A stretch of DNA of 64,000 nt from Escherichia phage vB_EcoP_PE007. The translations under genes were made by a program, and so were the position numbers. Under the pieces are notes generated by a model, which was not told where the DNA came from, made no database searches, and saw nothing but the letters and a program-made list of their open reading frames with translations. Location of the stretch: the sequence record OQ938542.1. The stretch is one strand, 5' to 3'. This document shows positions 2,443-16,181 of the stretch, one piece after another (positions within the stretch are counted from its first letter, which is position 1; each line of letters opens with the position of its first letter).

Positions 2443-2751
2443 TTGAATGAAATTGTTTGTATACTTCCTCATTCAGCTAAGATAGCCGACCGGAATATAC
2501 GTATTCACCTACCATTCCCATTAAGTAATCCATTCACTCGTAATGAAAGAACCACAGTAGAAGATGTAGAGGTAGCTTATGAGGCTTATCTTCGTAATCG
2601 TCTTATTAGTGGTGACAAGTTAATTACAGCAGAGATGGAAAGGATTGCATCCTTTGTAACAGATAGTACAGGTAAGCCTGTTGGCTTAATCGGTACTGAA
2701 TCTGATGTGAATGTTATTCGTAAAATATTAATGGAGGTATTAAATGGCTAA
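2443..2751 (+). CDS. hypothetical protein (TTG start)
   Basis: 102-aa ORF; AGGAG 8 nt upstream of TTG. Confidence 0.45.
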   Translation: MNEIVCILPHSAKIADRNIRIHLPFPLSNPFTRNERTTVEDVEVAYEAYLRNRLISGDKLITAEMERIASFVTDSTGKPVGLIGTESDVNVIRKILMEVLNG

Positions 2752-2974
2752 ATATAAAGTAATACGTTTTGCAGATAATAAACGTGGCATTGGTGCAGAA
2801 GTAGAGAAGAAAACATTCTTTGGAACCAGCACATGGGTGAAGATTGCTACACCTGGTTACGATGAATGCTTTGACAAATGGGTTAATAAAGCAACGGGTA
2901 AATCTGGGTATGCTGATATTTGCATGTCACAGCTTAATGACTTCTATACTGCCAATCACATTACTAAGGAGTAA
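2744..2974 (+). CDS. hypothetical protein
   Basis: 76-aa ORF with GGAGG RBS. Confidence 0.5.
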   Translation: MAKYKVIRFADNKRGIGAEVEKKTFFGTSTWVKIATPGYDECFDKWVNKATGKSGYADICMSQLNDFYTANHITKE

Positions 2975-2979
2975 ACAAA

Positions 2980-3201
2980 ATGTTGTTCAGCACTAATTAT
3001 GGAATCTGCCCAATCTGTAAGAAAGGAAGAGGAGTTGCTAATCATAAGAAGTGTAGTCGTATCCTACAGAAACAACGGAACCAGAAAGAATGGGATAGGA
3101 TATTGGAAAACCAACACAAAGATGAGTTCAAGAAGACGGCTGTTAAGGCATCTACTCAGCTCATTCGTCGTACTAACTTCATAGAAGGTTATCAGAGATG
3201 A
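2980..3201 (+). CDS. small basic Cys-containing protein (possible zinc ribbon)
   Basis: 73 aa; CPICKK...KKCSR motif; RBS present. Confidence 0.45.
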   Translation: MLFSTNYGICPICKKGRGVANHKKCSRILQKQRNQKEWDRILENQHKDEFKKTAVKASTQLIRRTNFIEGYQR

Positions 3202-3554
3202 AACTAATAGTGGCTGGTGGAAGAGACTTCGTAAATACCCAAGTAATGATTACAGTATTAATGGATTTAGTGGAGAAGGGTAAGATTGACCCTAATCCAG
3301 AATTAGTATGTGGTATGGCTCGTGGAGCAGATATATTAGCTTTCCGACTATGGAAATCTGCAAATATGCAGATACATGTATTCCCTGCTGAATGGGATAC
3401 CTATGGTAAATCTGCTGGATTCCGAAGGAATAAAGAAATGGGTGAGTTTGCAGATGCTGCTGTATGTTTCTGGGATGGTAAATCCAAAGGAACCAAGCAC
3501 ATGATTGATATCATGAATAGACTTAATAAACCTGTATATGTTGTGAGGTACTAA
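3198..3554 (+). CDS. SLOG-superfamily protein (DUF2493-like)
   Basis: 118 aa; GGRDF...GMARGADILAFRLW...AGFRRN...FWDGKSKGT pattern recalled for DUF2493/DprA-LOG-like Rossmann fold. Confidence 0.5.
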   Translation: MKLIVAGGRDFVNTQVMITVLMDLVEKGKIDPNPELVCGMARGADILAFRLWKSANMQIHVFPAEWDTYGKSAGFRRNKEMGEFADAAVCFWDGKSKGTKHMIDIMNRLNKPVYVVRY

Positions 3555-3809
3555 ATGATTATTACATATCCTACGGGTAAAACTGTGGAATATATGAAGC
3601 ATACAATTCAAGTGCCTCATTGGGTTAAGTATATAGCATTACTACCTCGCCAATATAAGAGTGCTAATACCTCACTAATAGGATTCTCTAAGAAGCCTAA
3701 GCTAACAGAAAACAATATCTGGGTATCCTCTGGAAGACAAGAAGAGATTGGTTTTTGTGATTTGAGTATTGTCGATAATAACATCTATGGGACATTGAGA
3801 AAGGTATGA
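3555..3809 (+). CDS. hypothetical protein
   Basis: 84-aa ORF. Confidence 0.45.
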   Translation: MIITYPTGKTVEYMKHTIQVPHWVKYIALLPRQYKSANTSLIGFSKKPKLTENNIWVSSGRQEEIGFCDLSIVDNNIYGTLRKV

Positions 3810-4120: not shown

Positions 4121-4500
4121 AGATTATGTCATTAGGTGACGACACCAATGCTTTACTAGGTGTATCTGCACGTCCAATCATCATTGTTAATAAACATCAC
4201 GGTAAATCTGGTGAGTATATTGGGCGTGGCTCACCATTAGGCAATCCATTTGTCATTGGTAAAGACGGTTCGAGAGAACAGGTTATAGCCAAATATCGAG
4301 TATGGCTTAATGAACAAATTATGAGAAAGAATCCAGTTGTACTGGATGAACTTAATCGTCTTGGTAATAAAGCCATTGACGAGAAAGGATTAGCCTTACA
4401 GTGCTTCTGTTATCCGAAACCATGTCATGGCGAGGTTATTAAAGAGAAGCTAGTGAAAGCTATGTATAACTATTTTGTGGAGAATCCCAATGGCATTTAG
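4117..4500 (+). CDS. DUF4326-like protein
   Basis: 127 aa; GSPLGNPF...YRVWL...CFCYPKPCHGEV pattern recalled for DUF4326. Confidence 0.4.
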   Translation: MKIMSLGDDTNALLGVSARPIIIVNKHHGKSGEYIGRGSPLGNPFVIGKDGSREQVIAKYRVWLNEQIMRKNPVVLDELNRLGNKAIDEKGLALQCFCYPKPCHGEVIKEKLVKAMYNYFVENPNGI

Positions 4501-4873
4501 TGATATTAACCATCCAGCTTTATGGGGTATTTTACATATCCCAAGTAATAAGTTATTGCGTCAATATCCTAAAGGGTATGGGCATACTCAATTAGACGTT
4601 GAAGATCCAGTTAATCATGAAAGACGCAAACGTGGTATTAATTTACCACCTCGTCTGTTCACTGATGAAGATACAGCTAAAAGGGCATTAACTAGTTGGT
4701 TAGCTGGTTCCTGGAAAACTGAATTAGAGTATGAATCAACTGACGAATATGGTAGTGGGTTCTATTATAGGGATGTACCATCACCCCATAAAAAGGCAAA
4801 TCGTATTAAAGAGGATATGAAAGTAGTTCCTGTTTATCTATATACAGATGCAAAAGAGGAACTATATGTCTAA
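4490..4873 (+). CDS. hypothetical protein
   Basis: ATG at 4490 inside ORF 4475-4873; 127 aa. Confidence 0.45.
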   Translation: MAFSDINHPALWGILHIPSNKLLRQYPKGYGHTQLDVEDPVNHERRKRGINLPPRLFTDEDTAKRALTSWLAGSWKTELEYESTDEYGSGFYYRDVPSPHKKANRIKEDMKVVPVYLYTDAKEELYV

Positions 4874-5051
4874 ACAATGCAAATGTGGTAAAGGCCATGT
4901 ATCCCAGTGGGATGGTAAATGTGGCCATTGCCGAACCAAGAAAGAGCAACGTGACCATGAATATGCTCTTACTTACTTAGAATTAACCAGAGCCAACAAC
5001 AATATGACCACACACGATGCTTATATTTATAACAGAGAGGCATGTAAATGA
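4848..5051 (+). CDS. small Cys-rich protein (CxC...CxxC)
   Basis: 67 aa; CKCGKGH...CGHC suggests zinc binding. Confidence 0.45.
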   Translation: MQKRNYMSKQCKCGKGHVSQWDGKCGHCRTKKEQRDHEYALTYLELTRANNNMTTHDAYIYNREACK

Positions 5052-5398
5052 AAGAAATCTTAGTATTCACTACCAATGTACTTGGGCAGCATATCAATGC
5101 TGCTGCCAAATTAGCATATAAGAAGCATGGTGCTCGCTGGGGTATGGCCTATGGTCATTATGGTAATAGCTTTGCCATTCCAGTAAAGGATGGTTATGGT
5201 AACCGGATTAAAGAGGGTACTATCTATGGCTTCATTGAAGGTTTCATTGCCTATGCATCTTCTAATCCACAATGGGATTTCAAAGTTATGAGTAATGACT
5301 ATCTGGACCCATACCAATTCATTAACGTAACTGGAAATGTACTGTTACCAGAAGCATGGCGTAAACACTTAGGCGATGCTTACAACTACTGGAGTTAA
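5048..5398 (+). CDS. hypothetical protein
   Basis: 116-aa ORF, start overlaps previous stop. Confidence 0.5.
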   Translation: MKEILVFTTNVLGQHINAAAKLAYKKHGARWGMAYGHYGNSFAIPVKDGYGNRIKEGTIYGFIEGFIAYASSNPQWDFKVMSNDYLDPYQFINVTGNVLLPEAWRKHLGDAYNYWS

Positions 5399-5400
5399 TA

Positions 5401-5661
5401 ATGACTTATGAAGAATTATGGTCTGCTCAAGTCAGAGCCAGAGCACTTACACGACACGATATCTATTGTGCATTACAGAACGAATTAAAGAGTCGTACTA
5501 AGCTGGGTCACATATCTGGTTTAGTTAAAATACCTATGACTAGCCTAGTATGGCCTTATCAGAAGAAAAATAATGAATTTAATGGTAATGGATTGCATGT
5601 ACGCATCGACTACATCGGTAATGAAAATAGTATTCGTATTACCTTTTGGACTAAGCGTTAG
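5401..5661 (+). CDS. hypothetical protein
   Basis: 86-aa ORF. Confidence 0.5.
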   Translation: MTYEELWSAQVRARALTRHDIYCALQNELKSRTKLGHISGLVKIPMTSLVWPYQKKNNEFNGNGLHVRIDYIGNENSIRITFWTKR

Positions 5662-6974: not shown

Positions 6975-8192
6975 ATGCAACTGTTAACCGCTCGTGAATA
7001 CCTGAAAGTAGATATTGCTAATAACTATGGCTTAGATAAGAAGACATGGGATGAGCGTATTGCCTGGTTCGATGAGAACGAAGCTAACCTGCTTAATCTG
7101 GTAGATGAGGCAGAGGATTCCGCTCTGTTCTTTGCAGGTATAAACGCATGGAAAGACATGAAAGCAGGTAAGCCTATCGGTTATGCCGTAGCTCTGGATG
7201 CTACATCATCTGGCTTGCAGTTACTGGCCTGCCTGACTGGTGACCGTTCTGCTGCTGAACTGTGTAATGTAGTTAACTACATGGGAGAGAATGGTAAGCC
7301 ATTACGTCGTGATGCTTATACAGTTATCTATCACAAGATGCTGGACATCCTTGGTGAAGCATCACGTATTAAACGTAGTGACACTAAGCAGGCAGTTATG
7401 ACTGCATTCTACGGCTCAGAAGCCAAGCCTAAAGAAGTATTCGGTGAAGGTATTCGTCTCAAGACTTTTGAGAATGTAATGGAAACTGTTGCTAGTGGTC
7501 CTTGGGCATTGAACAAGTTCTTACTGCAATGTGGTAATCCAGATGCCAACCGTTACATATGGATACTTCCTGACAACTTCCATGCTGTCATTAAGGTCAT
7601 GGTTCCAGAAGTACAGACTGTTAACTTCTTAGGCAAACCGTTCGACATTACTCGTATGGTTCAGGGTACTGAAGAGAAGACTCGTATGCTCTCTGCTAAC
7701 ATCACCCACTCTATTGATGGAATGGTGGTACGTGAGATGCTACGTCGTTGTAACTTCGACATGAACCAGGTGGGCTATATTAAGTCCCTTTGCGAGGGAA
7801 CAGGTGATTACATGGTTGGATCTGATGATAACTATGAAATGGTTAATACACTGTGGACTAGTTATGAGAAATCAGGCTTCCTGTCTACTCGTATCTTTGA
7901 CTATCTGGATTCAGAAACCATTGCATTGGTTGATACAGATGTAATCCTGGCTATGCTCAACACTATGCCTAAGAAACCATTCCCTGTAATGACTGTACAT
8001 GACTGCTTCCGTTGCCATCCTAACTACGGTAATGACCTGCGTCGTCAATACAATCAGATCTTGTCTGACATTGCTAAGAGTGACTTACTGGGCTTCATTC
8101 TGTCTCAGGTACTGGGACAAGAGTTCTCTGCTGGTAAGCTGGATGACAGCCTCTGGCAGGACATCCTTGAAACAGACTATGCGTTGAGTTAA
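6975..8192 (+). CDS. RNA polymerase II large subunit-like, T7-like single-subunit RNAP catalytic fragment (N4 gp16-like)
   Basis: 405 aa; DATSSGLQLLA resembles T7 RNAP motif A (DGSCSGIQH) and MTVHDCF resembles motif C (HDSFG). Confidence 0.65.
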   Translation: MQLLTAREYLKVDIANNYGLDKKTWDERIAWFDENEANLLNLVDEAEDSALFFAGINAWKDMKAGKPIGYAVALDATSSGLQLLACLTGDRSAAELCNVVNYMGENGKPLRRDAYTVIYHKMLDILGEASRIKRSDTKQAVMTAFYGSEAKPKEVFGEGIRLKTFENVMETVASGPWALNKFLLQCGNPDANRYIWILPDNFHAVIKVMVPEVQTVNFLGKPFDITRMVQGTEEKTRMLSANITHSIDGMVVREMLRRCNFDMNQVGYIKSLCEGTGDYMVGSDDNYEMVNTLWTSYEKSGFLSTRIFDYLDSETIALVDTDVILAMLNTMPKKPFPVMTVHDCFRCHPNYGNDLRRQYNQILSDIAKSDLLGFILSQVLGQEFSAGKLDDSLWQDILETDYALS

Positions 8193-9716: not shown

Positions 9717-9769
9717 GTATGATTGCTTTATTTGGGGTTATAAACCCTGAAATGAAACCCTCAAGTTTG

Positions 9770-9798
9770 ACCTCCCTATTGAAGGGAGGTCTTTTTTT
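9770..9798 (+). terminator. intrinsic terminator
   Basis: acctccc/gggaggt stem plus ttttttt. Confidence 0.7.
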
Positions 9799-10657: not shown

Positions 10658-10987
10658 ATGAAAACTTTACTTAAAGGTATTGCAGTAGCTGCACTGATAG
10701 CTTTGGCCCCAAGTGCACAGGCAATTGAACCAGAACCAATTCTGGAAGGTGCTCAGGCTTACCTGGATGACACCCGTGATGTGTTCGGGCAAGGGTTCTT
10801 CATGGGCAGCATGGTTGCTTACATTGAGAACACAAATAACTGTGTTCCTGATGGTATTAAGTATTCAAGCATTCTGCCTAAGATTGCCAAAGTAGTTATT
10901 TATGACTCTGCGATCCTTAAGATGAAGAATACATCTCAAATTATTGCGTACTCAGTGCACAAGGCATATCCCTGCACCAAATCTTAA
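10658..10987 (+). CDS. secreted/periplasmic protein with signal peptide
   Basis: 109 aa; N-terminus MKTLLKGIAVAALIALAPSAQA is a classic Sec signal with AxA cleavage site. Confidence 0.5.
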   Translation: MKTLLKGIAVAALIALAPSAQAIEPEPILEGAQAYLDDTRDVFGQGFFMGSMVAYIENTNNCVPDGIKYSSILPKIAKVVIYDSAILKMKNTSQIIAYSVHKAYPCTKS

Positions 10988-11021: not shown

Positions 11022-12074
11022 ATGGCAAGCATTGACTCCTTGACCGTATGTAATTCACGTCAAGCCCGTAACTTTATTATCCGTGCCTTGAAAGCAGGTA
11101 ACGTACCGTTCCTGACTTCATCCCCGGGTATGGGTAAATCTGCAATCATTCGTTCTATTGCAGAAGAATTTGGTATGAAGCTGATAGATCATCGTCTGTC
11201 TACTTCTGCCCCAGAAGACCTGTCTGGCTTACCATTCCGTAATGGTGACCGTGCAGAGTTTATTCCATTCGCTGACTTATTCCCCATTGAAGGGGATGAA
11301 GTACCAGAAGGGTATAATGGCTGGCTCCTGTTCCTTGATGAGTTCAACTCAGCTAAGAAAGAGGTAGTGGCTGCTGCATACAAACTAATTCTCGACCGTA
11401 TGACTGGTCAGAAAAAACTTCATCCTAATGTGATGATTGTATGCGCTGGTAACAAAGCTACTGACCGTGCCATTGTTAACCCATTAGGTACTGCAATGCA
11501 GTCCCGTGTGGTTCACTTTGAAATGGAACTTAACTTCGACATCTTTGTTGAAGACGTAATGATTCCTCAGCAATGGGATGAACGTCTGGTTGCATTCTTA
11601 CATGCTAATCCAGGCTATCTGCATGACTTCGACCCAGCTCATAAGAACAAAACGTTCTGTTGTCCTCGTACTTGGGACTTTGTTAATAAAGACCTCAAGA
11701 ACCTGCCAGAAGGTGCTCTTCCTGATGAAGATTCTATCTACTATGCAGGTCACGTTACTGCTGGTAAGGCTACAGAGTTTGTTCAGTTTACTCAGGTATA
11801 TAATCGTATCATTACGATTGAGAAGGTAGTCAAAGACCCACTGGGCTGTGCACTACCGGAAGATAACAACCTGTGTTGGGCTACCGTTAACCATCTGGCT
11901 AACAAGACTACTGAAGAGAACTTTGTTGATGTTCTTCAGTACATTGAACGCTTTAAAACGTTCACCCATAAGATTCTGTACTTCCGCACAGTAGGCAAGG
12001 CTTTACCAGAAATTCAGGCTACACCTGAATGGCGTAAGGCTGCTGCTAACGTCTCTCGTTACATTCACGGATAA
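11022..12074 (+). CDS. MoxR-like AAA+ ATPase
   Basis: 350 aa; Walker A SSPGMGKSA, Walker B LLFLDEFNSA. Confidence 0.6.
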   Translation: MASIDSLTVCNSRQARNFIIRALKAGNVPFLTSSPGMGKSAIIRSIAEEFGMKLIDHRLSTSAPEDLSGLPFRNGDRAEFIPFADLFPIEGDEVPEGYNGWLLFLDEFNSAKKEVVAAAYKLILDRMTGQKKLHPNVMIVCAGNKATDRAIVNPLGTAMQSRVVHFEMELNFDIFVEDVMIPQQWDERLVAFLHANPGYLHDFDPAHKNKTFCCPRTWDFVNKDLKNLPEGALPDEDSIYYAGHVTAGKATEFVQFTQVYNRIITIEKVVKDPLGCALPEDNNLCWATVNHLANKTTEENFVDVLQYIERFKTFTHKILYFRTVGKALPEIQATPEWRKAAANVSRYIHG

Positions 12075-12081
12075 TCACAAC

Positions 12082-13257
12082 ATGAACCAATTTCCTCAGC
12101 ACACACTTAGTGATGAACAACTCATGCGTGAGTATGACCGTATTCAGGCTCAAGCCTTCCTGGGTAAGTCTGCTGCGTTCTTTGGTTCATTGCTGTGTAG
12201 TCTTAAATTCTCATGGAAACGCGAGGATTGCCCCACTGCATGTACTGATGGGATAGAACTCCATTTCAACCCAGACTTCTTTATCTGGATGTGTCCAGAT
12301 GCAAGAGAAACAGTATTAATGCACGAGTTATGGCATGTGGCATATCTACATGACATTCGTCGTGGAAGCCGTGACCCGGAAGTCTGGAACCAGGCTTGTG
12401 ACCACTTCATTAACCTTCAGTTAGAAGAGGATGGTTACAAGTTCACTGGTATTGACAAAGGCATTTGCAAAGACCCTCAATATAAGGATTGGGTCGAAGA
12501 AGACATCTACGATGACCTGATGAAGAACCCTCAGAAAAGGCAGAAGCCGTCAGGGGGTGCTGGAGCAGGTCTTGCTGGCGACATAAAATCCCCCACTTCG
12601 GGGCAGTCCCAGGGTGCTGTTGTCAACAACGTAGTTCGTGCAATGCAGAGCCAGAAAATGGCTGGTGGACAGATGCCTGGTAAGGGTGCTGGACGTATGG
12701 AAGAGGTTATTACCCAATTCCTTAAACCAGTGGTTCCTTGGCAGGAAGTTCTGATGAACTTCTTTACCGACATTGATGACACTCACTATACGTGGGCCAG
12801 ACCAAACCGTCGTTATACTGACACCTATCTACCTTCACTGGAAGATGATGAAGGACGCCTACGACACTTAGCTTATTTTGAGGATGTATCCGGTTCTATT
12901 AGTAGTGCTGACTCTCTGCGTTTTAACTCAGAGGTTGCCTACGTTAAGAGCCAGTTCAATCCTAAGAAGATGTCCCTAATTACCTTCGACGATATTATCC
13001 AGGAAGAAATAGACATCACTGAAGAAGATACTTTCGAAGAAATTAAAATTACTGGTCGTGGTGGTACAAGCCTCGTGCCTGTACGAGATTGGATTATTAA
13101 GAATAAGCCAACCGCTGCAATCATATTCTCCGATATGTATGTTCGTCCAATGGAAGAATTGCCATTTGATATCCCTATCATCTGGTGTGTTCTGAATAAT
13201 CCCAATGCTACCGTACCTTTTGGGGAGGTAGTTCATATCCCTAAAGGAATGAAATAA
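12082..13257 (+). CDS. vWA-domain protein with N-terminal HExxH motif (DUF2201-like)
   Basis: 391 aa; MHELWH motif; MIDAS-like DVSGS; directly follows AAA+ ATPase. Confidence 0.55.
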   Translation: MNQFPQHTLSDEQLMREYDRIQAQAFLGKSAAFFGSLLCSLKFSWKREDCPTACTDGIELHFNPDFFIWMCPDARETVLMHELWHVAYLHDIRRGSRDPEVWNQACDHFINLQLEEDGYKFTGIDKGICKDPQYKDWVEEDIYDDLMKNPQKRQKPSGGAGAGLAGDIKSPTSGQSQGAVVNNVVRAMQSQKMAGGQMPGKGAGRMEEVITQFLKPVVPWQEVLMNFFTDIDDTHYTWARPNRRYTDTYLPSLEDDEGRLRHLAYFEDVSGSISSADSLRFNSEVAYVKSQFNPKKMSLITFDDIIQEEIDITEEDTFEEIKITGRGGTSLVPVRDWIIKNKPTAAIIFSDMYVRPMEELPFDIPIIWCVLNNPNATVPFGEVVHIPKGMK

Positions 13258-13763
13258 TGGTTGTTAATGGTAATTCTCTATATCGTTCATCTCAGTTGCT
13301 GGATGTCCCAGACCGTAAGATATCCGAACATGGTGTAAGCTATGGATTGGGTGAAGCTGGTTACGATATTCGTATCAAACAAGATATTACCTTCTATCGC
13401 TTATTTGGGTTGATTCCAATGGTGAAAGTCGTTGATGGAAACAAAGTATCACGCCATCTCGGTAAATTCACATTGGCTTCAGCAATTGAGAAGTTCAACA
13501 TGTCCCCATCCTGTGTAGCTATCGTTCACGATAAGTCTACGTGGGCAAGACGTGCATTATCAGTGTTCAATACCGTAATAGAACCAGGATGGAAAGGGTA
13601 TCTCACCCTTGAACTGGTCTATCATGGTCGTAAGAAATTGCATATCCCAGCTGGTGCTGGGATAGCTCAAGTATTATTTCATCTGGTTCAAGAACCTGCT
13701 AATTACAATGGCAAGTATATGAACCAGGAAAACAAACCAGTAGCTGCAAGAAGCAGTAAATAA
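13257..13763 (+). CDS. dcd: dCTP deaminase / dUTPase-superfamily protein
   Basis: 168 aa; EPGWKGYLTLEL...AGAGIAQVLFH resembles dCTP deaminase core motifs. Confidence 0.6.
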   Translation: MVVNGNSLYRSSQLLDVPDRKISEHGVSYGLGEAGYDIRIKQDITFYRLFGLIPMVKVVDGNKVSRHLGKFTLASAIEKFNMSPSCVAIVHDKSTWARRALSVFNTVIEPGWKGYLTLELVYHGRKKLHIPAGAGIAQVLFHLVQEPANYNGKYMNQENKPVAARSSK

Positions 13764-14019: not shown

Positions 14020-14055
14020 GTGAAGAAACTAACTCAACCCCACATAGGAACCATC

Positions 14056-14298
14056 ATGGAATCTTTAGCAGCAATCCTTGTTATGTTGTTTGTATTAGCT
14101 GTATACCTTATCCCTACTATCATTGCTTTCTCACGAGGCCATGCCTCTAAGTGGGGTATTGGTGTGCTTAATATCGTATTAGGCTGGTCTTTAGTCTTCT
14201 GGGTAGTAGCACTGATTTGGTCGCTGTCCAACAAAGGACAGAACCAAGTTACAAATGTAACTGTTGTCCAAACCAATGGTGGCAGTAAAGCAGAGTAA
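14056..14298 (+). CDS. superinfection-immunity (Imm)-like small membrane protein
   Basis: ATG 14056 with AGGAA RBS; 80 aa, two hydrophobic helices; IPTIIAFSRGH...NIVLGWSLVFWVVALIWSL pattern recalled for Imm family. Confidence 0.5.
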   Translation: MESLAAILVMLFVLAVYLIPTIIAFSRGHASKWGIGVLNIVLGWSLVFWVVALIWSLSNKGQNQVTNVTVVQTNGGSKAE

Positions 14299-14370: not shown

Positions 14371-14397
14371 AAGCCCACCTAACCCGTGGGCTTTTTT
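14371..14397 (+). terminator. intrinsic terminator
   Basis: aagcccac/gtgggctt stem plus tttttt. Confidence 0.65.
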
Positions 14398-14794: not shown

Positions 14795-15237
14795 TGCGTA
14801 TCCCATTCCTAAGAAAAAGAGAACGAAATCCTGTTCTTTATAATAAAGGCATAGAGGATGAGTATGAACTCAACCGTAAAGCCCGTTCCTACATAACAAA
14901 ATTATTCATGGGGACTAAAAACCCTGATAGATTATTAGACTTTGTTTTTGAACAAGTCTTTATCATATACAGCTTAGCTATGTCTGCTGGTTCACAAGAA
15001 GTAAGTGATAAGGCAAGAAATGCTCTCTGTATGCTCCGTAAAGAGTATGAAGCTCTCATGTATGGAGACTTGTACTCATTTAAGGAAGAAACCGCTGTAG
15101 CGTGTTCTGTGGCTCTTACTGAAGGTGTAGCAGTATTACAGGAACTACCTCGTAGTGAGTTTAAACTGGTATATGTTCAGGTTAAGAGAATCACAGAAAC
15201 GAGAAGTGGTATCACTAACTATCTAAGGTCATTCTAA
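14794..15237 (+). CDS. hypothetical protein
   Basis: 147-aa ORF. Confidence 0.5.
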   Translation: MRIPFLRKRERNPVLYNKGIEDEYELNRKARSYITKLFMGTKNPDRLLDFVFEQVFIIYSLAMSAGSQEVSDKARNALCMLRKEYEALMYGDLYSFKEETAVACSVALTEGVAVLQELPRSEFKLVYVQVKRITETRSGITNYLRSF

Positions 15238-16181
15238 TGATTAAGGCATCAGTAATTGCAGATTCCGTTCATCCAGAAACAGGAACCCGTATCACAACCT
15301 TTGAATTGGTTTATCCCCGATTCATTCACAGTGAGTTTATGACTCACCGTGTATTCAACCGCAATGCTTCAAGTAGCCGTGCTATTCCTACCTCTAAGTT
15401 AATCGAACAGGTTCGCAATGAACCAGTGATGCCAAGTCACTGGGGCAAGAACCAGAAAGGTATGCAAGCAGATGAAGAACTCACTCCTATGGAGATTGAG
15501 GATGCTAAGTTTATCTGGGATAACGCTGCATCTGCTGCTGCTGTGTATGCTGAACAGCTACGTCGTGGGCAAGTACATAAGCAGATTGTTAACCGCATTC
15601 TGGAACCATTCACTCATATCCGTGTAGTAGTAACTTCAACTAGCTGGGCTAATTTCTATGGACTGCGTGACCACAAAGATGCACAGCCAGAGATTCGTGA
15701 ACTGGCTCAAGCAATGCGTATGGCACATGAAGAAAGTACACCAAGGGCATTACCATATGGACAATGGCATCTGCCATATGTTGCTCATATTGATCGTGTT
15801 GGGGCTTACAATTTCTGCAAACGCAATCGAATTACACGCGATGAACCAAGTGATGCAGAAGTGCATGGACTACTCCTCAAAGTAAGTGCTGCACGCTGTG
15901 CCCGTGCCTCATATAACAACTTTGAGGGACGCCCTTCTACTATCGAAGAAGATCTTGGCTTATTCGCTAAGTTAGTAGAAAACCAACCTATTCATGCTTC
16001 TCCAACGGAACATCAGGCTACACCTATGAACCTTGGTGAGAAGTATGTGAATAACATGAACCCAGTTACCTGGGAACAAGGTGTTACATCCATGGATAAA
16101 GAAGGGAATCTGTACTCAGGTAACCTGCTCCACTTTATCCAATTCCGTAAATTAATTCCTGGTGAGACTATTACTGAATGA
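15237..16181 (+). CDS. thyX: thymidylate synthase, flavin-dependent (ThyX-like)
   Basis: 314 aa; THRVFNRNASSSRAIP resembles the ThyX RHRx7-8S signature. Confidence 0.5.
   Translation: MIKASVIADSVHPETGTRITTFELVYPRFIHSEFMTHRVFNRNASSSRAIPTSKLIEQVRNEPVMPSHWGKNQKGMQADEELTPMEIEDAKFIWDNAASAAAVYAEQLRRGQVHKQIVNRILEPFTHIRVVVTSTSWANFYGLRDHKDAQPEIRELAQAMRMAHEESTPRALPYGQWHLPYVAHIDRVGAYNFCKRNRITRDEPSDAEVHGLLLKVSAARCARASYNNFEGRPSTIEEDLGLFAKLVENQPIHASPTEHQATPMNLGEKYVNNMNPVTWEQGVTSMDKEGNLYSGNLLHFIQFRKLIPGETITE

Follow-up and report, generated by a model that had tools for sequence, protein, structure and literature searches.

What does a phage do with a MoxR-type AAA+ ATPase whose gene stands directly ahead of that for a VWA protein carrying a peptidase-like motif? 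The locus lies in a window of 64,000 nucleotides, the whole stretch of DNA analyzed here, from Escherichia phage vB_EcoP_PE007 (record OQ938542.1). The window DNA is ~96% identical to deposited Gamaleyavirus genomes, placing the source among the G7C-like, N4-like coliphages. Both open reading frames were confirmed on the plus strand at the positions given in Table 1, with a gap of 7 nt between them. Database relatives reached a best E-value of 1e-235 for the ATPase (1,759 clusters) and of 1e-267 for the VWA protein (1,241 clusters), which shows both frames to be real genes. The two neighbouring genes are probably coupled in translation, and the stop codon of the second overlaps the ATG of the following dCTP deaminase gene (TAATG at 13255–13259). 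A sigma-70 promoter scan is not informative for genes transcribed by phage RNA polymerase; two terminator-like hairpins are listed in the table as possible limits of the transcription unit. The pair is the long-annotated gp24/gp25 core pair of phage N4, a point absent from an earlier note on this DNA. It comprises orthologues of the N4 (Schitoviridae) proteins in the same order, running from the RNAP II subunits through ATPase, VWA protein and dCTP deaminase to thymidylate synthase; nothing of substance differs, so that the present pair is a further member. The published set of 14 core genes common to N4-like phages includes both gp24 and gp25.

Table 1 Positions of the gene pair, its sequence motifs and its flanking features in the window.
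Feature	Position	Strand	Details
Terminator-like hairpin, possible upstream limit of transcription unit	9769..9791	+	9-pair stem then TTTTTTT; pattern match only
MoxR-class AAA+ ATPase, N4 gp24 orthologue	11022..12074	+	350 aa, 39.5 kDa
Walker A (P-loop) SSPGMGKS, residues 33–40	11118..11141	+	P35, G38, K39, S40 invariant in 40 relatives
Helix-2 insert region, residues 56–99	11187..11318	+	first motif is the invariant DHRLSTSAPEDLSGLP
Walker B LLFLDE, residues 102–107	11325..11342	+	D106, E107 invariant; end of strand 100–106
Pre-sensor-1 β-hairpin, residues 126–137	11397..11432	+	G129, L133 invariant
Sensor 1 (AGN, N144)	11445..11453	+	A142, G143, N144 invariant; end of strand 137–144
Arginine finger (MQSR, R162)	11496..11507	+	S161, R162 invariant, directly before strand 164–168; assigned from position
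Sensor 2 (CPRTW, R216), start of all-helical lid	11661..11675	+	R216, T217 invariant; start of helix 215–226; assigned from position
Zincin-like peptidase domain and minimal VWA fusion, N4 gp25 orthologue	12082..13257	+	391 aa, 44.7 kDa
HELWHVAYLH, HExxH plus H90, putative zinc site and catalytic Glu	12322..12351	+	H81, E82, H85, H90 invariant
NQACDHFIN	12388..12414	+	N103, A105, D107, N111 invariant; helix 99–116, next after HExxH helix
Variable Gly-rich linker and helical spacer, residues 149–206	12526..12699	+	
Invariant segment WARPNRRYTDTYLPS, residues 238–252	12793..12837	+	right before first VWA strand
MIDAS part 1, DVSGS (D268, S270, S272)	12883..12897	+	invariant; end of strand 262–268
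MIDAS Thr (GGT, T329)	13060..13068	+	G328, T329 invariant
MIDAS Asp (SD, D351)	13129..13134	+	D351 invariant; end of strand 345–350
dCTP deaminase gene, translationally coupled neighbour, outside module	13257..13763	+	Pfam DCD 6.2e-16
Terminator-like hairpin, possible downstream limit of transcription unit	14371..14393	+	8-pair stem then TTTT; pattern match only

The earlier note had assigned the first gene to the MoxR-type AAA+ ATPases; motifs and structural matches agree with this reading, and the Pfam AAA match with membership of the AAA+ superfamily. Pfam AAA matched at 27.1 bits (cut-off 21.2), AAA_5 scored 17.5 bits, under its cut-off of 22, and no match to AAA_3 was found. Among 40 relatives, AAA_5 was matched by 28, bpMoxR by six and AAA_3 by two, all weakly, and Pfam cut-offs were exceeded by the homologous ATPases of phage G (AAA_3 35.9, cut-off 27), an Aeromonas phage (AAA_5 31.3, cut-off 22) and cyanophage S-TIM61 (AAA_5 24.9, cut-off 22). 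Residue invariance was taken from an alignment of 40 relatives, secondary structure and pLDDT from an AF2 monomer model. In this model, the Walker A loop connects a strand (29–33) to a helix (39–49), and the helix-2 insert occupies the ~40 residues between strand 2 (52–58) and strand 3 (100–106), with residues 69–84 showing pLDDT values below 50. The insert contains 13 invariant positions (D56, H57, R58, P64, D66, G69, P71, A78, F80, F83, F87, P88 and P95), and its motif resembles the MoxR signature 'R-I-Q-x-T-x-D-L-x-P-x-D-L-x-G'. The pre-sensor-1 hairpin is predicted as two short strands (127–128 and 131–133) ahead of strand 137–144. Walker A and B, sensor 1, arginine finger and sensor 2 thus follow each other in canonical order on a predicted α/β core with a helical lid, which identifies the protein as a member of the AAA+ superfamily, and the modelled helix-2 insert and pre-sensor-1 hairpin mark it as a divergent member of the dynein/midasin/MoxR clade. 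The top structural matches of the model were MoxR, dynein and midasin, not RFC; single-sequence and profile searches against PDB sequences gave a weak midasin match only, and an NCBIfam search yielded no match for either protein of the pair.

For the second gene, the Pfam search that the earlier note had recommended returned two families above cut-off, the putative zincin peptidase domain DUF2201_N (192.1 bits, cut-off 23.2; 2e-56) and, carboxy-terminal to it, the VWA-like DUF2201 (118.8 bits, cut-off 26.4; 2e-34). The proposed VWA assignment is borne out by this match and by a complete MIDAS, and the amino-terminal, metallopeptidase-like HELWH motif was recovered at residues 81–85 (12322–12336) inside DUF2201_N. 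A profile built from the N4-like peptidase-VWA proteins collected 21,421 cluster representatives at E ≤ 0.001. Invariance was assessed here over 40 N4-like sequences and six distant phage lineages. H81, E82, H85, H90 and D107 are invariant in every lineage, and the predicted model places HExxH on a helix (72–87) with a candidate ligand downstream; the motif is retained even in homologues of 22–27% identity. We infer that D107 is likely the third zinc ligand. Some homologues gave a weak Peptidase_M48 match at the HExxH motif, the isolated amino-terminal domains of three homologues matched nothing besides DUF2201_N in Pfam at E ≤ 10, and single-sequence and profile searches of the protein against PDB sequences returned nothing meaningful.

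The two domains are connected by a linker that had been described as Gly/Pro-rich. The glycine-rich part of this description stands, with 12 Gly, 7 Ala and 7 Gln among the 62 residues 149–210; the proline-rich part does not apply here, since only 4 of the 62 are Pro, and a PPPP run is instead found in relatives. Linker length and sequence vary among N4-like relatives. Averaged over blocks of ten residues, the pLDDT is 59–71 for residues 151–180 and 201–210, and 77–84 for residues 181–200, the region of helix 174–193. Between linker and VWA domain lies a W-x-RPNRR...YLPS segment in which W238, P241, R243, R244, Y249 and P251 are invariant in N4-like phages, R243 remaining invariant and R244 nearly so across all phage lineages compared. 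The segment is predicted to be disordered (pLDDT below 50 for residues 230–258) and may serve as the contact with the ATPase.

The carboxy-terminal half is predicted to adopt a Rossmann-like VWA fold, reduced to a minimal domain of ~130 residues (262–391), and the DxSxS...T...D residues of the MIDAS are invariant in the 40 N4-like sequences and the six distant lineages. The longest irregular stretches of the modelled domain (314–331 and 351–365) both lie beside MIDAS residues, and neither a NorD-type finger nor any protruding hairpin was predicted in it. The authors of the NorQD work describe a finger-like β extension with which the VWA domain reaches into the AAA+ pore, and hold this arrangement to be general for MoxR partners (Kahle et al. 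2023, 2026). As the finger is absent from the modelled phage domain, the docking mode may differ from that of NorQD; this lowers the support for an identical docking mode, not for a joint function with the ATPase.

Database records label these genes differently, and taken literally they would make the first gene a clamp loader for DNA polymerase and the second an HNH endonuclease, which we find hardly credible. The HNH label, carried by phrog_1314 and many RefSeq records, is refuted by the domain and fold results: DUF2201_N and DUF2201 cover the whole protein, the carboxy-terminal half folds as a VWA domain in the model, and no HNH family appeared among the Pfam matches, for the amino-terminal half even at E ≤ 10. 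The clamp loader label comes from one record and a weak phrog_168 match. Against it stand the helix-2 insert and pre-sensor-1 hairpin of the ATPase, the structural matches given above, and a conserved partner that is a VWA protein and not a sliding clamp.

We further followed the pair across phage genomes. It is a conserved feature of all N4-like phages and turns up again in several unrelated groups of phages. The two genes are direct neighbours in N4-like phages, in cyanophage S-TIM61, in an Aeromonas phage and in the jumbo phages Muenster and PBECO4, and lie 1–5 kb apart in phage G and in metagenomic Callisto-like contigs. The DUF2201 gene of Vequintavirus and that of phage Callisto have upstream of them a gene that does not encode an ATPase, a point against the remodelling-protease reading favoured below. 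A homologue search started from Callisto led to phage-like metagenomic contigs, not to clearly bacterial loci; a pattern scan of genome contigs for bacterial contexts used N4-specific patterns and hence returned only N4-like contigs. Throughout cyanophage, jumbo and Bacillus phage homologues, down to 22–27% identity, all catalytic and MIDAS residues are invariant, a pattern that favours an active protease or remodeller driven by ATP and targeted through the MIDAS.

As a separate observation, the most conserved motif of the ATPase is interrupted in relatives by a homologous group I-like intron that contains an HNH gene. In the ATPase gene of Shigella phage pSb-1, splicing of this putative intron would be expected to join ...GAAGACCT to TAGTGGTCTGCCATTC...

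The combination of a MoxR ATPase with a metallopeptidase-vWA protein had been described in 2021 in jumbo phages, which the earlier note likewise did not contain. The group 2.2 jumbo phages have the same two-gene architecture with homologous proteins (Iyer et al. 2021, Viruses 13:63). Muenster and PBECO4 encode DUF2201_N and DUF2201 proteins beside an ATPase annotated as homologous to N4 gp24. These peptidase-VWA proteins are longer, at 444–464 aa, than the one studied here and only 23–25% identical to it. For this architecture, the same authors propose a role in virion assembly, and a chaperone-protease for the folding, assembly or trimming of structural proteins (head, tail or the 3,590-aa virion RNA polymerase) would find further support in the Acidianus two-tailed virus, whose MoxR/vWA pair p618/p892 is reported to act in tail growth. 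The gene surroundings in other phages are compatible with it as well: just upstream of it, PBECO4 has genes annotated for virion structural proteins and an Hsp70-like gene, and in S-TIM61 an Hsp20 gene immediately precedes it and a 'virion structural protein' follows. The gene position in N4-like phages disfavours the proposal, however, as the pair is located among the middle genes, with the RNAP II subunits on one side and the genes of nucleotide metabolism and replication on the other, far from the late structural genes, which lie on the opposite strand; gp24 and gp25 are middle transcripts in N4 and are not listed among the virion proteins that mass spectrometry detected. Late proteins could nonetheless be substrates of a chaperone expressed in the middle phase, and we consider an assembly role unlikely while giving it some weight. 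Taken together, the middle-gene position beside dCTP deaminase and thymidylate synthase and the absence from the reported virion proteins point to the replication and nucleotide-metabolism phase or to host take-over, and not to head or tail assembly.

The order ATPase–VWA–dcd–...–thyX is maintained in distant N4-like loci, and a thymidylate synthase gene, encoding either ThyX or the unrelated ThyA, follows the pair by 1.3–2.5 kb in four lineages, namely N4-like phages, a cyanophage, Rak2-like jumbo phages and Callisto-like metagenomic phages. In phage G, Va1 and Vequintavirus the examined flanks contained no such gene, and the linkage may reflect only shared expression timing. Because of the linkage in four lineages, one could read the module not as a virion-assembly chaperone but as an ATP-gated, MIDAS-targeted protease or activator of the thymidylate/dNTP-supply or replication programme, docking by the W-x-RPNRR...YLPS segment instead of a VWA finger; we think this conjecture rather improbable.

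The same neighbourhood bears on whether the pair could be a classical MoxR-VWA chaperone of the NorQD, CbbQO, CoxDE or CobST type, inserting a cofactor into, or activating, an enzyme of dNTP synthesis, with HExxH serving as a metal-binding or adaptor domain. The well-studied bacterial MoxR-VWA pairs all mature or reactivate enzymes, some homologues show weak VWA_CoxE matches, and the genes recur beside those for dCTP deaminase and the non-homologous ThyX or ThyA. However, the linkage to thymidylate synthase is not universal, the invariant catalytic Glu of HExxH would not be required for pure metal binding, and to our knowledge none of ThyA, ThyX and dCTP deaminase needs an inserted metal centre, which makes this reading quite improbable. 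We give still less credit to a protease of host take-over or counter-defence that recognizes and cleaves a host protein such as a defence or stress-response factor. Its expression ahead of the late genes would suit such a role, bacterial conflict systems use MoxR-vWA couples as switches, and the pair has a patchy but wide distribution in large virulent phages that infect Gram-negative, Gram-positive or cyanobacterial hosts. Yet very strong sequence conservation and core status across Escherichia, Roseobacter and Bacillus hosts fit a conserved phage-internal or universal target better than a rapidly evolving defence target, and the only PADLOC match, to DolB at 13.8 bits, was insignificant. This reading overlaps with the explanation we prefer, which names no particular target.

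Comparison with characterized systems indicates how the pair might work. Among single-module AAA+ proteins, the modelled ATPase fold is nearest to NorQ and CbbQ, from which it differs by ~90 additional helical residues at the carboxy terminus, and the partner shares with NorD the succession of amino-terminal domain, disordered linker and carboxy-terminal VWA domain with MIDAS. By analogy to NorQ/NorD and CbbQ/CbbO, the phage pair probably follows the same logic, with the target bound at the MIDAS and remodelled by the ring via the partner. The differences lie in the partner and the targets. The VWA part of NorD amounts to 33 kDa compared with ~130 residues in the phage protein, which shows no finger-like insertion in the model; the phage amino-terminal domain is a putative zincin-like peptidase and not the N-domain of NorD or CbbO; and the known targets of the bacterial pairs are metalloenzymes or Rubisco. 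The p618/p892 pair of the Acidianus two-tailed virus is likewise a virus-encoded MoxR and vWA couple, which differs by having no peptidase domain and is reported to function outside the cell, as the tail of an archaeal virus develops. Midasin (Rea1/Mdn1) unites six fused AAA modules and a MIDAS domain in one giant eukaryotic polypeptide without a peptidase.

On balance we lean towards the pair being a two-component, ATP-driven remodelling protease produced in the host cytoplasm in mid-infection, a reading to which we give somewhat better than even credence. The ATPase retains every nucleotide-handling motif, and the VWA protein combines a putative amino-terminal zincin-type domain with the invariant HExxH(x4)H...NxAxDxxxN pattern, a variable linker and a carboxy-terminal VWA domain. 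By analogy to NorQ/NorD, CbbQ/CbbO and midasin, the ATPase would form a hexameric ring to which the VWA protein docks, and the metal ion of the MIDAS would capture a specific target protein by one of its acidic residues. Hydrolysis of ATP could then twist or stretch the partner and, through it, the target, so that a site would be exposed or positioned for cutting by the fused zinc peptidase, or the peptidase itself would be switched on. We know of no DUF2201_N protein with demonstrated proteolysis. The literature likewise yielded no biochemical report of proteolysis for a peptidase-VWA protein, and no functional study in searches on DUF2201, the function of N4 gp24/gp25, CRISPRi-ART on N4 and experiments on phage MoxR/VWA proteins. 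The earlier note had called the role in the phage unclear; with no experimental work found, that statement is still correct.

The pair was already known, and our analysis adds no new kind of system. New are minor points: the minimal VWA domain with no finger predicted, the invariant W-x-RPNRR...YLPS segment predicted to be disordered, the linkage to thymidylate synthase, the intron in the ATPase gene of relatives, and the unsupported HNH label, by which a common mis-annotation of the VWA gene is corrected. Furthermore, the hypotheses on function are narrowed, since selection acts strictly on the two active sites and the genomic surroundings speak for metabolism in mid-infection more than for morphogenesis. 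Jumbo phages, cyanophages and Bacillus phage G have related pairs, and the peptidase-VWA profile matches more than 21,000 cluster representatives. Identification of the target would explain a core infection step of a large phage family and would yield the first MoxR-VWA machine coupled to a protease.

The ATPase and its peptidase–VWA partner are encoded by two consecutive open reading frames, for which the coordinates proposed in the earlier note agree exactly with those found in the window. A strong Shine-Dalgarno sequence (AGGAG) precedes the ATPase ORF, 7 nt separate its stop codon from the partner start, and the partner stop codon overlaps the start codon of the dCTP deaminase gene. Two terminator-like hairpins may form the borders of one transcription unit. 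This putative unit also comprises two further genes. The product of one is a small protein whose N-terminus is signal-like (phrog_11132; 'tai4 protein' in one record), and the other encodes a small two-helix membrane protein, whose relatives are annotated as superinfection immunity protein.

Coordinates of the ATPase–VWA locus and of related features in homologous loci
Feature	Sequence	Coordinates	Strand	Remark
ATPase ORF	window	11022..12074	+	350 aa
Peptidase–VWA partner ORF	window	12082..13257	+	391 aa
Terminator-like hairpin	window	9769-9791		pattern match only
Terminator-like hairpin	window	14371-14393		pattern match only
Small protein gene, signal-like sequence	window	10658-10987
Small two-helix membrane protein gene	window	14020-14298
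ThyX	window	15237-16181		N4-like phages
Codon matching the insert site	window	11220-11222		Leu67
Insert in ATPase gene	L001 (pSb-1)	2701-3568		868 nt
VWA gene, two annotated ORFs	L001 (pSb-1)	4471-5602		154 + 204 aa
Insert in ATPase gene	L007	~4288-5150
Extra ORFs between the pair	L004	4555-6001
Extra ORFs between the pair	L009	3573-5620
N4-like block	L005	434974-448110
Thymidylate synthase gene	L010	6133-6804
Thymidylate synthase gene	L011	6677-7606
Thymidylate synthase gene	L023	8961-9890
Thymidylate synthase gene	L016	8488-9848
Thymidylate synthase genes	L017-L020

The window represents a nearly complete N4-like genome, showing 92–96% DNA identity to >50 deposited genomes of coliphages of the genus Gamaleyavirus (G7C-like, Schitoviridae), with phage HK2 as the top match (95.8%). 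Early genes are followed by the two RNAP II subunits, the ATPase–VWA pair, dCTP deaminase, ThyX, rIIA/B, helicase and DNA polymerase, and the opposite strand encodes a 3,590-aa virion RNA polymerase and the structural genes. Between positions 8000 and 17500, sigma-70-like promoter matches were rarer than expected from shuffles (5 versus 21.1 ± 4.2) and terminator-like hairpins commoner (13 versus 6.1 ± 2.7), consistent with the block being transcribed by the phage-encoded RNA polymerase II.

The ATPase matched Pfam AAA above the cut-off (27.1 bits) and AAA_5 below it (17.5 bits, cut-off 22), as well as the PHROGs family phrog_1297, "ATPase" (1.9e-133). Matches among 40 relatives (50–87% identity) were all weak (AAA in 36, AAA_5 in 28, bpMoxR in 6 and AAA_3 in 2), and the top PDB sequence match was an AAA module of midasin (E 3.6e-4). 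An AlphaFold2 model built from the 40-sequence alignment (mean pLDDT 87) gave Foldseek TM-scores, normalised to the target, of 0.60–0.63 against NorQ and CbbQ, far above those of other single-module AAA+ proteins. Strands 2 and 3 of the model are separated by a conserved insert of ~40 residues, which opens with the invariant DHRLSTSAPEDLSGLP, and a short hairpin precedes the sensor-1 strand; as modelled, these are the helix-2 insert and the pre-sensor-1 hairpin, both markers of the MoxR/dynein/midasin clade. Walker A (SSPGMGKS), Walker B (D106/E107), sensor 1 (N144), the arginine finger (R162) and sensor 2 (R216) were invariant among the 40 relatives. Since clear homologues in phage G (AAA_3), an Aeromonas phage (AAA_5) and cyanophage S-TIM61 (AAA_5) pass the curated Pfam cut-offs, we take the ATPase as a divergent member of the MoxR clade. 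The earlier designation as a MoxR-type AAA+ ATPase is thus accepted as a clade assignment, based on the structural matches, the clade-marking insert and hairpin, and these homologues.

For the partner, Pfam identified DUF2201_N, a putative metallopeptidase (residues 17–253, 2e-56), and the VWA-like DUF2201 (residues 263–386, 2e-34). An alignment of 40 N4-like sequences was followed by one of six distant phage lineages (22–27% identity). Invariant in both alignments were H81, E82, H85 and H90, as well as N103, A105, D107 and N111, and the MIDAS residues D268, S270, S272, T329 and D351. In the AlphaFold2 model (mean pLDDT 80), helix 72–87 carries the HExxH motif, the following long helix carries D107, and the C-terminal 130 residues adopt a trimmed VWA fold. 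Residues ~150 to ~210 form a variable Gly-rich linker and helical spacer of reduced confidence except for helix 174–193. The two Pfam matches, the invariant HExxH and the modelled VWA fold bear out the proposal of a vWA protein with a metallopeptidase-like motif; overall, the earlier observation was real and its interpretation right.

The VWA gene also carries the label "HNH endonuclease" from phrog_1314, which we reject, as an HNH domain was undetectable in the protein, DUF2201_N and DUF2201 explain its whole length, and its C-terminal half folds as VWA. This propagated mis-annotation is widespread in RefSeq phage records (e.g. H1, H3, H6, phage G gp576 and PBECO4 gp009). The record of Shigella phage pSb-1 splits the VWA gene into two ORFs, although its DNA aligns continuously with the window except for small indels; the split reflects either a genuine frameshift or an error of sequencing, and a separate family, phrog_30358, stems from it.

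In the ATPase gene, pSb-1 carries an insert with an HNH endonuclease ORF, excision of which restores a 350-aa ORF identical to the window ATPase at 342 of 350 positions. Excision leaves a T at the 5′ exon end and a G at the insert end, the pattern expected for group I introns, and the Rfam group I model matched inside the insert below its gathering score of 50 (26.8 bits, E 2.3e-4). L007, a distant N4-like contig in a Gastranaerophilales MAG, encodes an ATPase of only 40% identity interrupted at the same codon by an insert whose 5′ end is similar (TAATTAAGTAGGGCC versus TAACTAATAGGGC); this insert too contains an HNH ORF, and its Rfam group I match again falls below threshold (24.5 bits, gathering score 50). 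These inserts of ~860 nt interrupt the helix-2 insert motif at its invariant EDLSG, within the SGL stretch, the sort of conserved functional site favoured by homing introns. Truncated ATPase ORFs of this kind account for ~95 database sequences (P0141, P0145, P0171); the window gene itself lacks the insert.

Both proteins are widely distributed. Searching phage records with tblastn returned the partner in 717 and the ATPase in 828, spanning all Schitoviridae sampled, Rak2-like and PA5oct-like jumbo phages, Vequintavirinae, one cyanophage, Bacillus phage G and others, and a profile run against 1.84 billion cluster representatives yielded 21,421 partner relatives at E ≤ 0.001. The two genes adjoin in N4-like loci, S-TIM61, Muenster, PBECO4 and an Aeromonas phage, and lie 1–5 kb apart in phage G and Callisto-like metagenomic contigs. 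In Vequintavirus and Callisto the gene upstream of the DUF2201 gene is not an ATPase; Vequintavirinae encode a homologous ATPase elsewhere in the genome. Strict adjacency is not universal even among N4-like phages, because 1.4–2.0 kb of extra ORFs separate the pair in two distant loci (L004, L009). L004, a 297-kb Roseococcus MAG contig, holds an N4-like block with ATPase, VWA, dcd, thyX, RNAP1 and RNAP2 inside this very large bacterial contig, and a 727-kb contig of a Mesorhizobium yinganensis isolate (L005) holds one with ATPase, VWA, dcd and thyX, in which RNAP1 and RNAP2 were not detected. These blocks suggest that Alphaproteobacteria harbour N4-like elements, integrated or resident in another form, unless the contigs are assembly chimeras.

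Both the gene pair and its architecture have been described before. In published tables, the roseophage homologues are assigned to N4 gp24 (AAA ATPase) and gp25 (vWFA). Chan et al. include genes 24 and 25 in the set of 14 core genes that they give for N4-like phages, and class both as middle transcripts; our literature search revealed no experimental work on the phage pair. Iyer et al. (2021) reported group 2.2 jumbo phages with a MoxR AAA+ and a vWA protein bearing a fused N-terminal metallopeptidase, and proposed a role in virion assembly by reference to the MoxR/vWA pair of Acidianus two-tailed virus. The products of genes 24 and 25 are absent from the virion mass-spectrometry lists of Chan et al., and AAA/vWA pairs of haloarchaeal siphoviruses lie within a replication/accessory module. 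In N4-like loci, the synteny RNAP1-RNAP2-...-ATPase-VWA-dcd-...-thyX is maintained at 40–50% identity. This synteny, the position in the middle-gene block and the coupling to dCTP deaminase favour a mid-infection cytoplasmic role over morphogenesis.

In four lineages, a thymidylate synthase gene lies 1.3–2.5 kb downstream of the DUF2201 gene: ThyX in N4-like phages and S-TIM61, the unrelated ThyA in the Rak2-like jumbo phages Muenster and PBECO4, and ThyX or DHFR plus ThyA in Callisto-like contigs, DHFR accompanying ThyA in some loci. None was seen in the examined flanks of phage G, Vibrio phage Va1 and Vequintavirus. We treat this linkage as a lead, which may reflect shared timing alone.

That the nucleotide-handling residues, the HExxH glutamate and the MIDAS site are strictly conserved speaks for the use of all three corresponding activities: ATP hydrolysis, peptide-bond hydrolysis and metal-mediated binding of an acidic ligand. 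Extending the NorQD, CbbQO and midasin models, a hexameric ATPase ring would hold one partner molecule, whose MIDAS site would capture an acidic residue of the target; ATP-driven movement of the partner would then remodel the target, or the partner's own linker, enabling the fused peptidase to cut. The partner differs from studied MoxR partners in two respects. NorD has a resolved VWA finger, regarded by Kahle et al. as general for MoxR partners, whereas the predicted VWA domain of the phage partner shows no finger-like insertion. Secondly, the segment WARPNRRYTDTYLPS (residues 238–252), directly ahead of the first VWA strand, combines invariance with predicted disorder, making it a natural candidate for contacting the ATPase ring. 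As a hypothesis of low probability, the module would belong to the nucleotide-supply or replication phase, with a docking mode unlike that of NorD.
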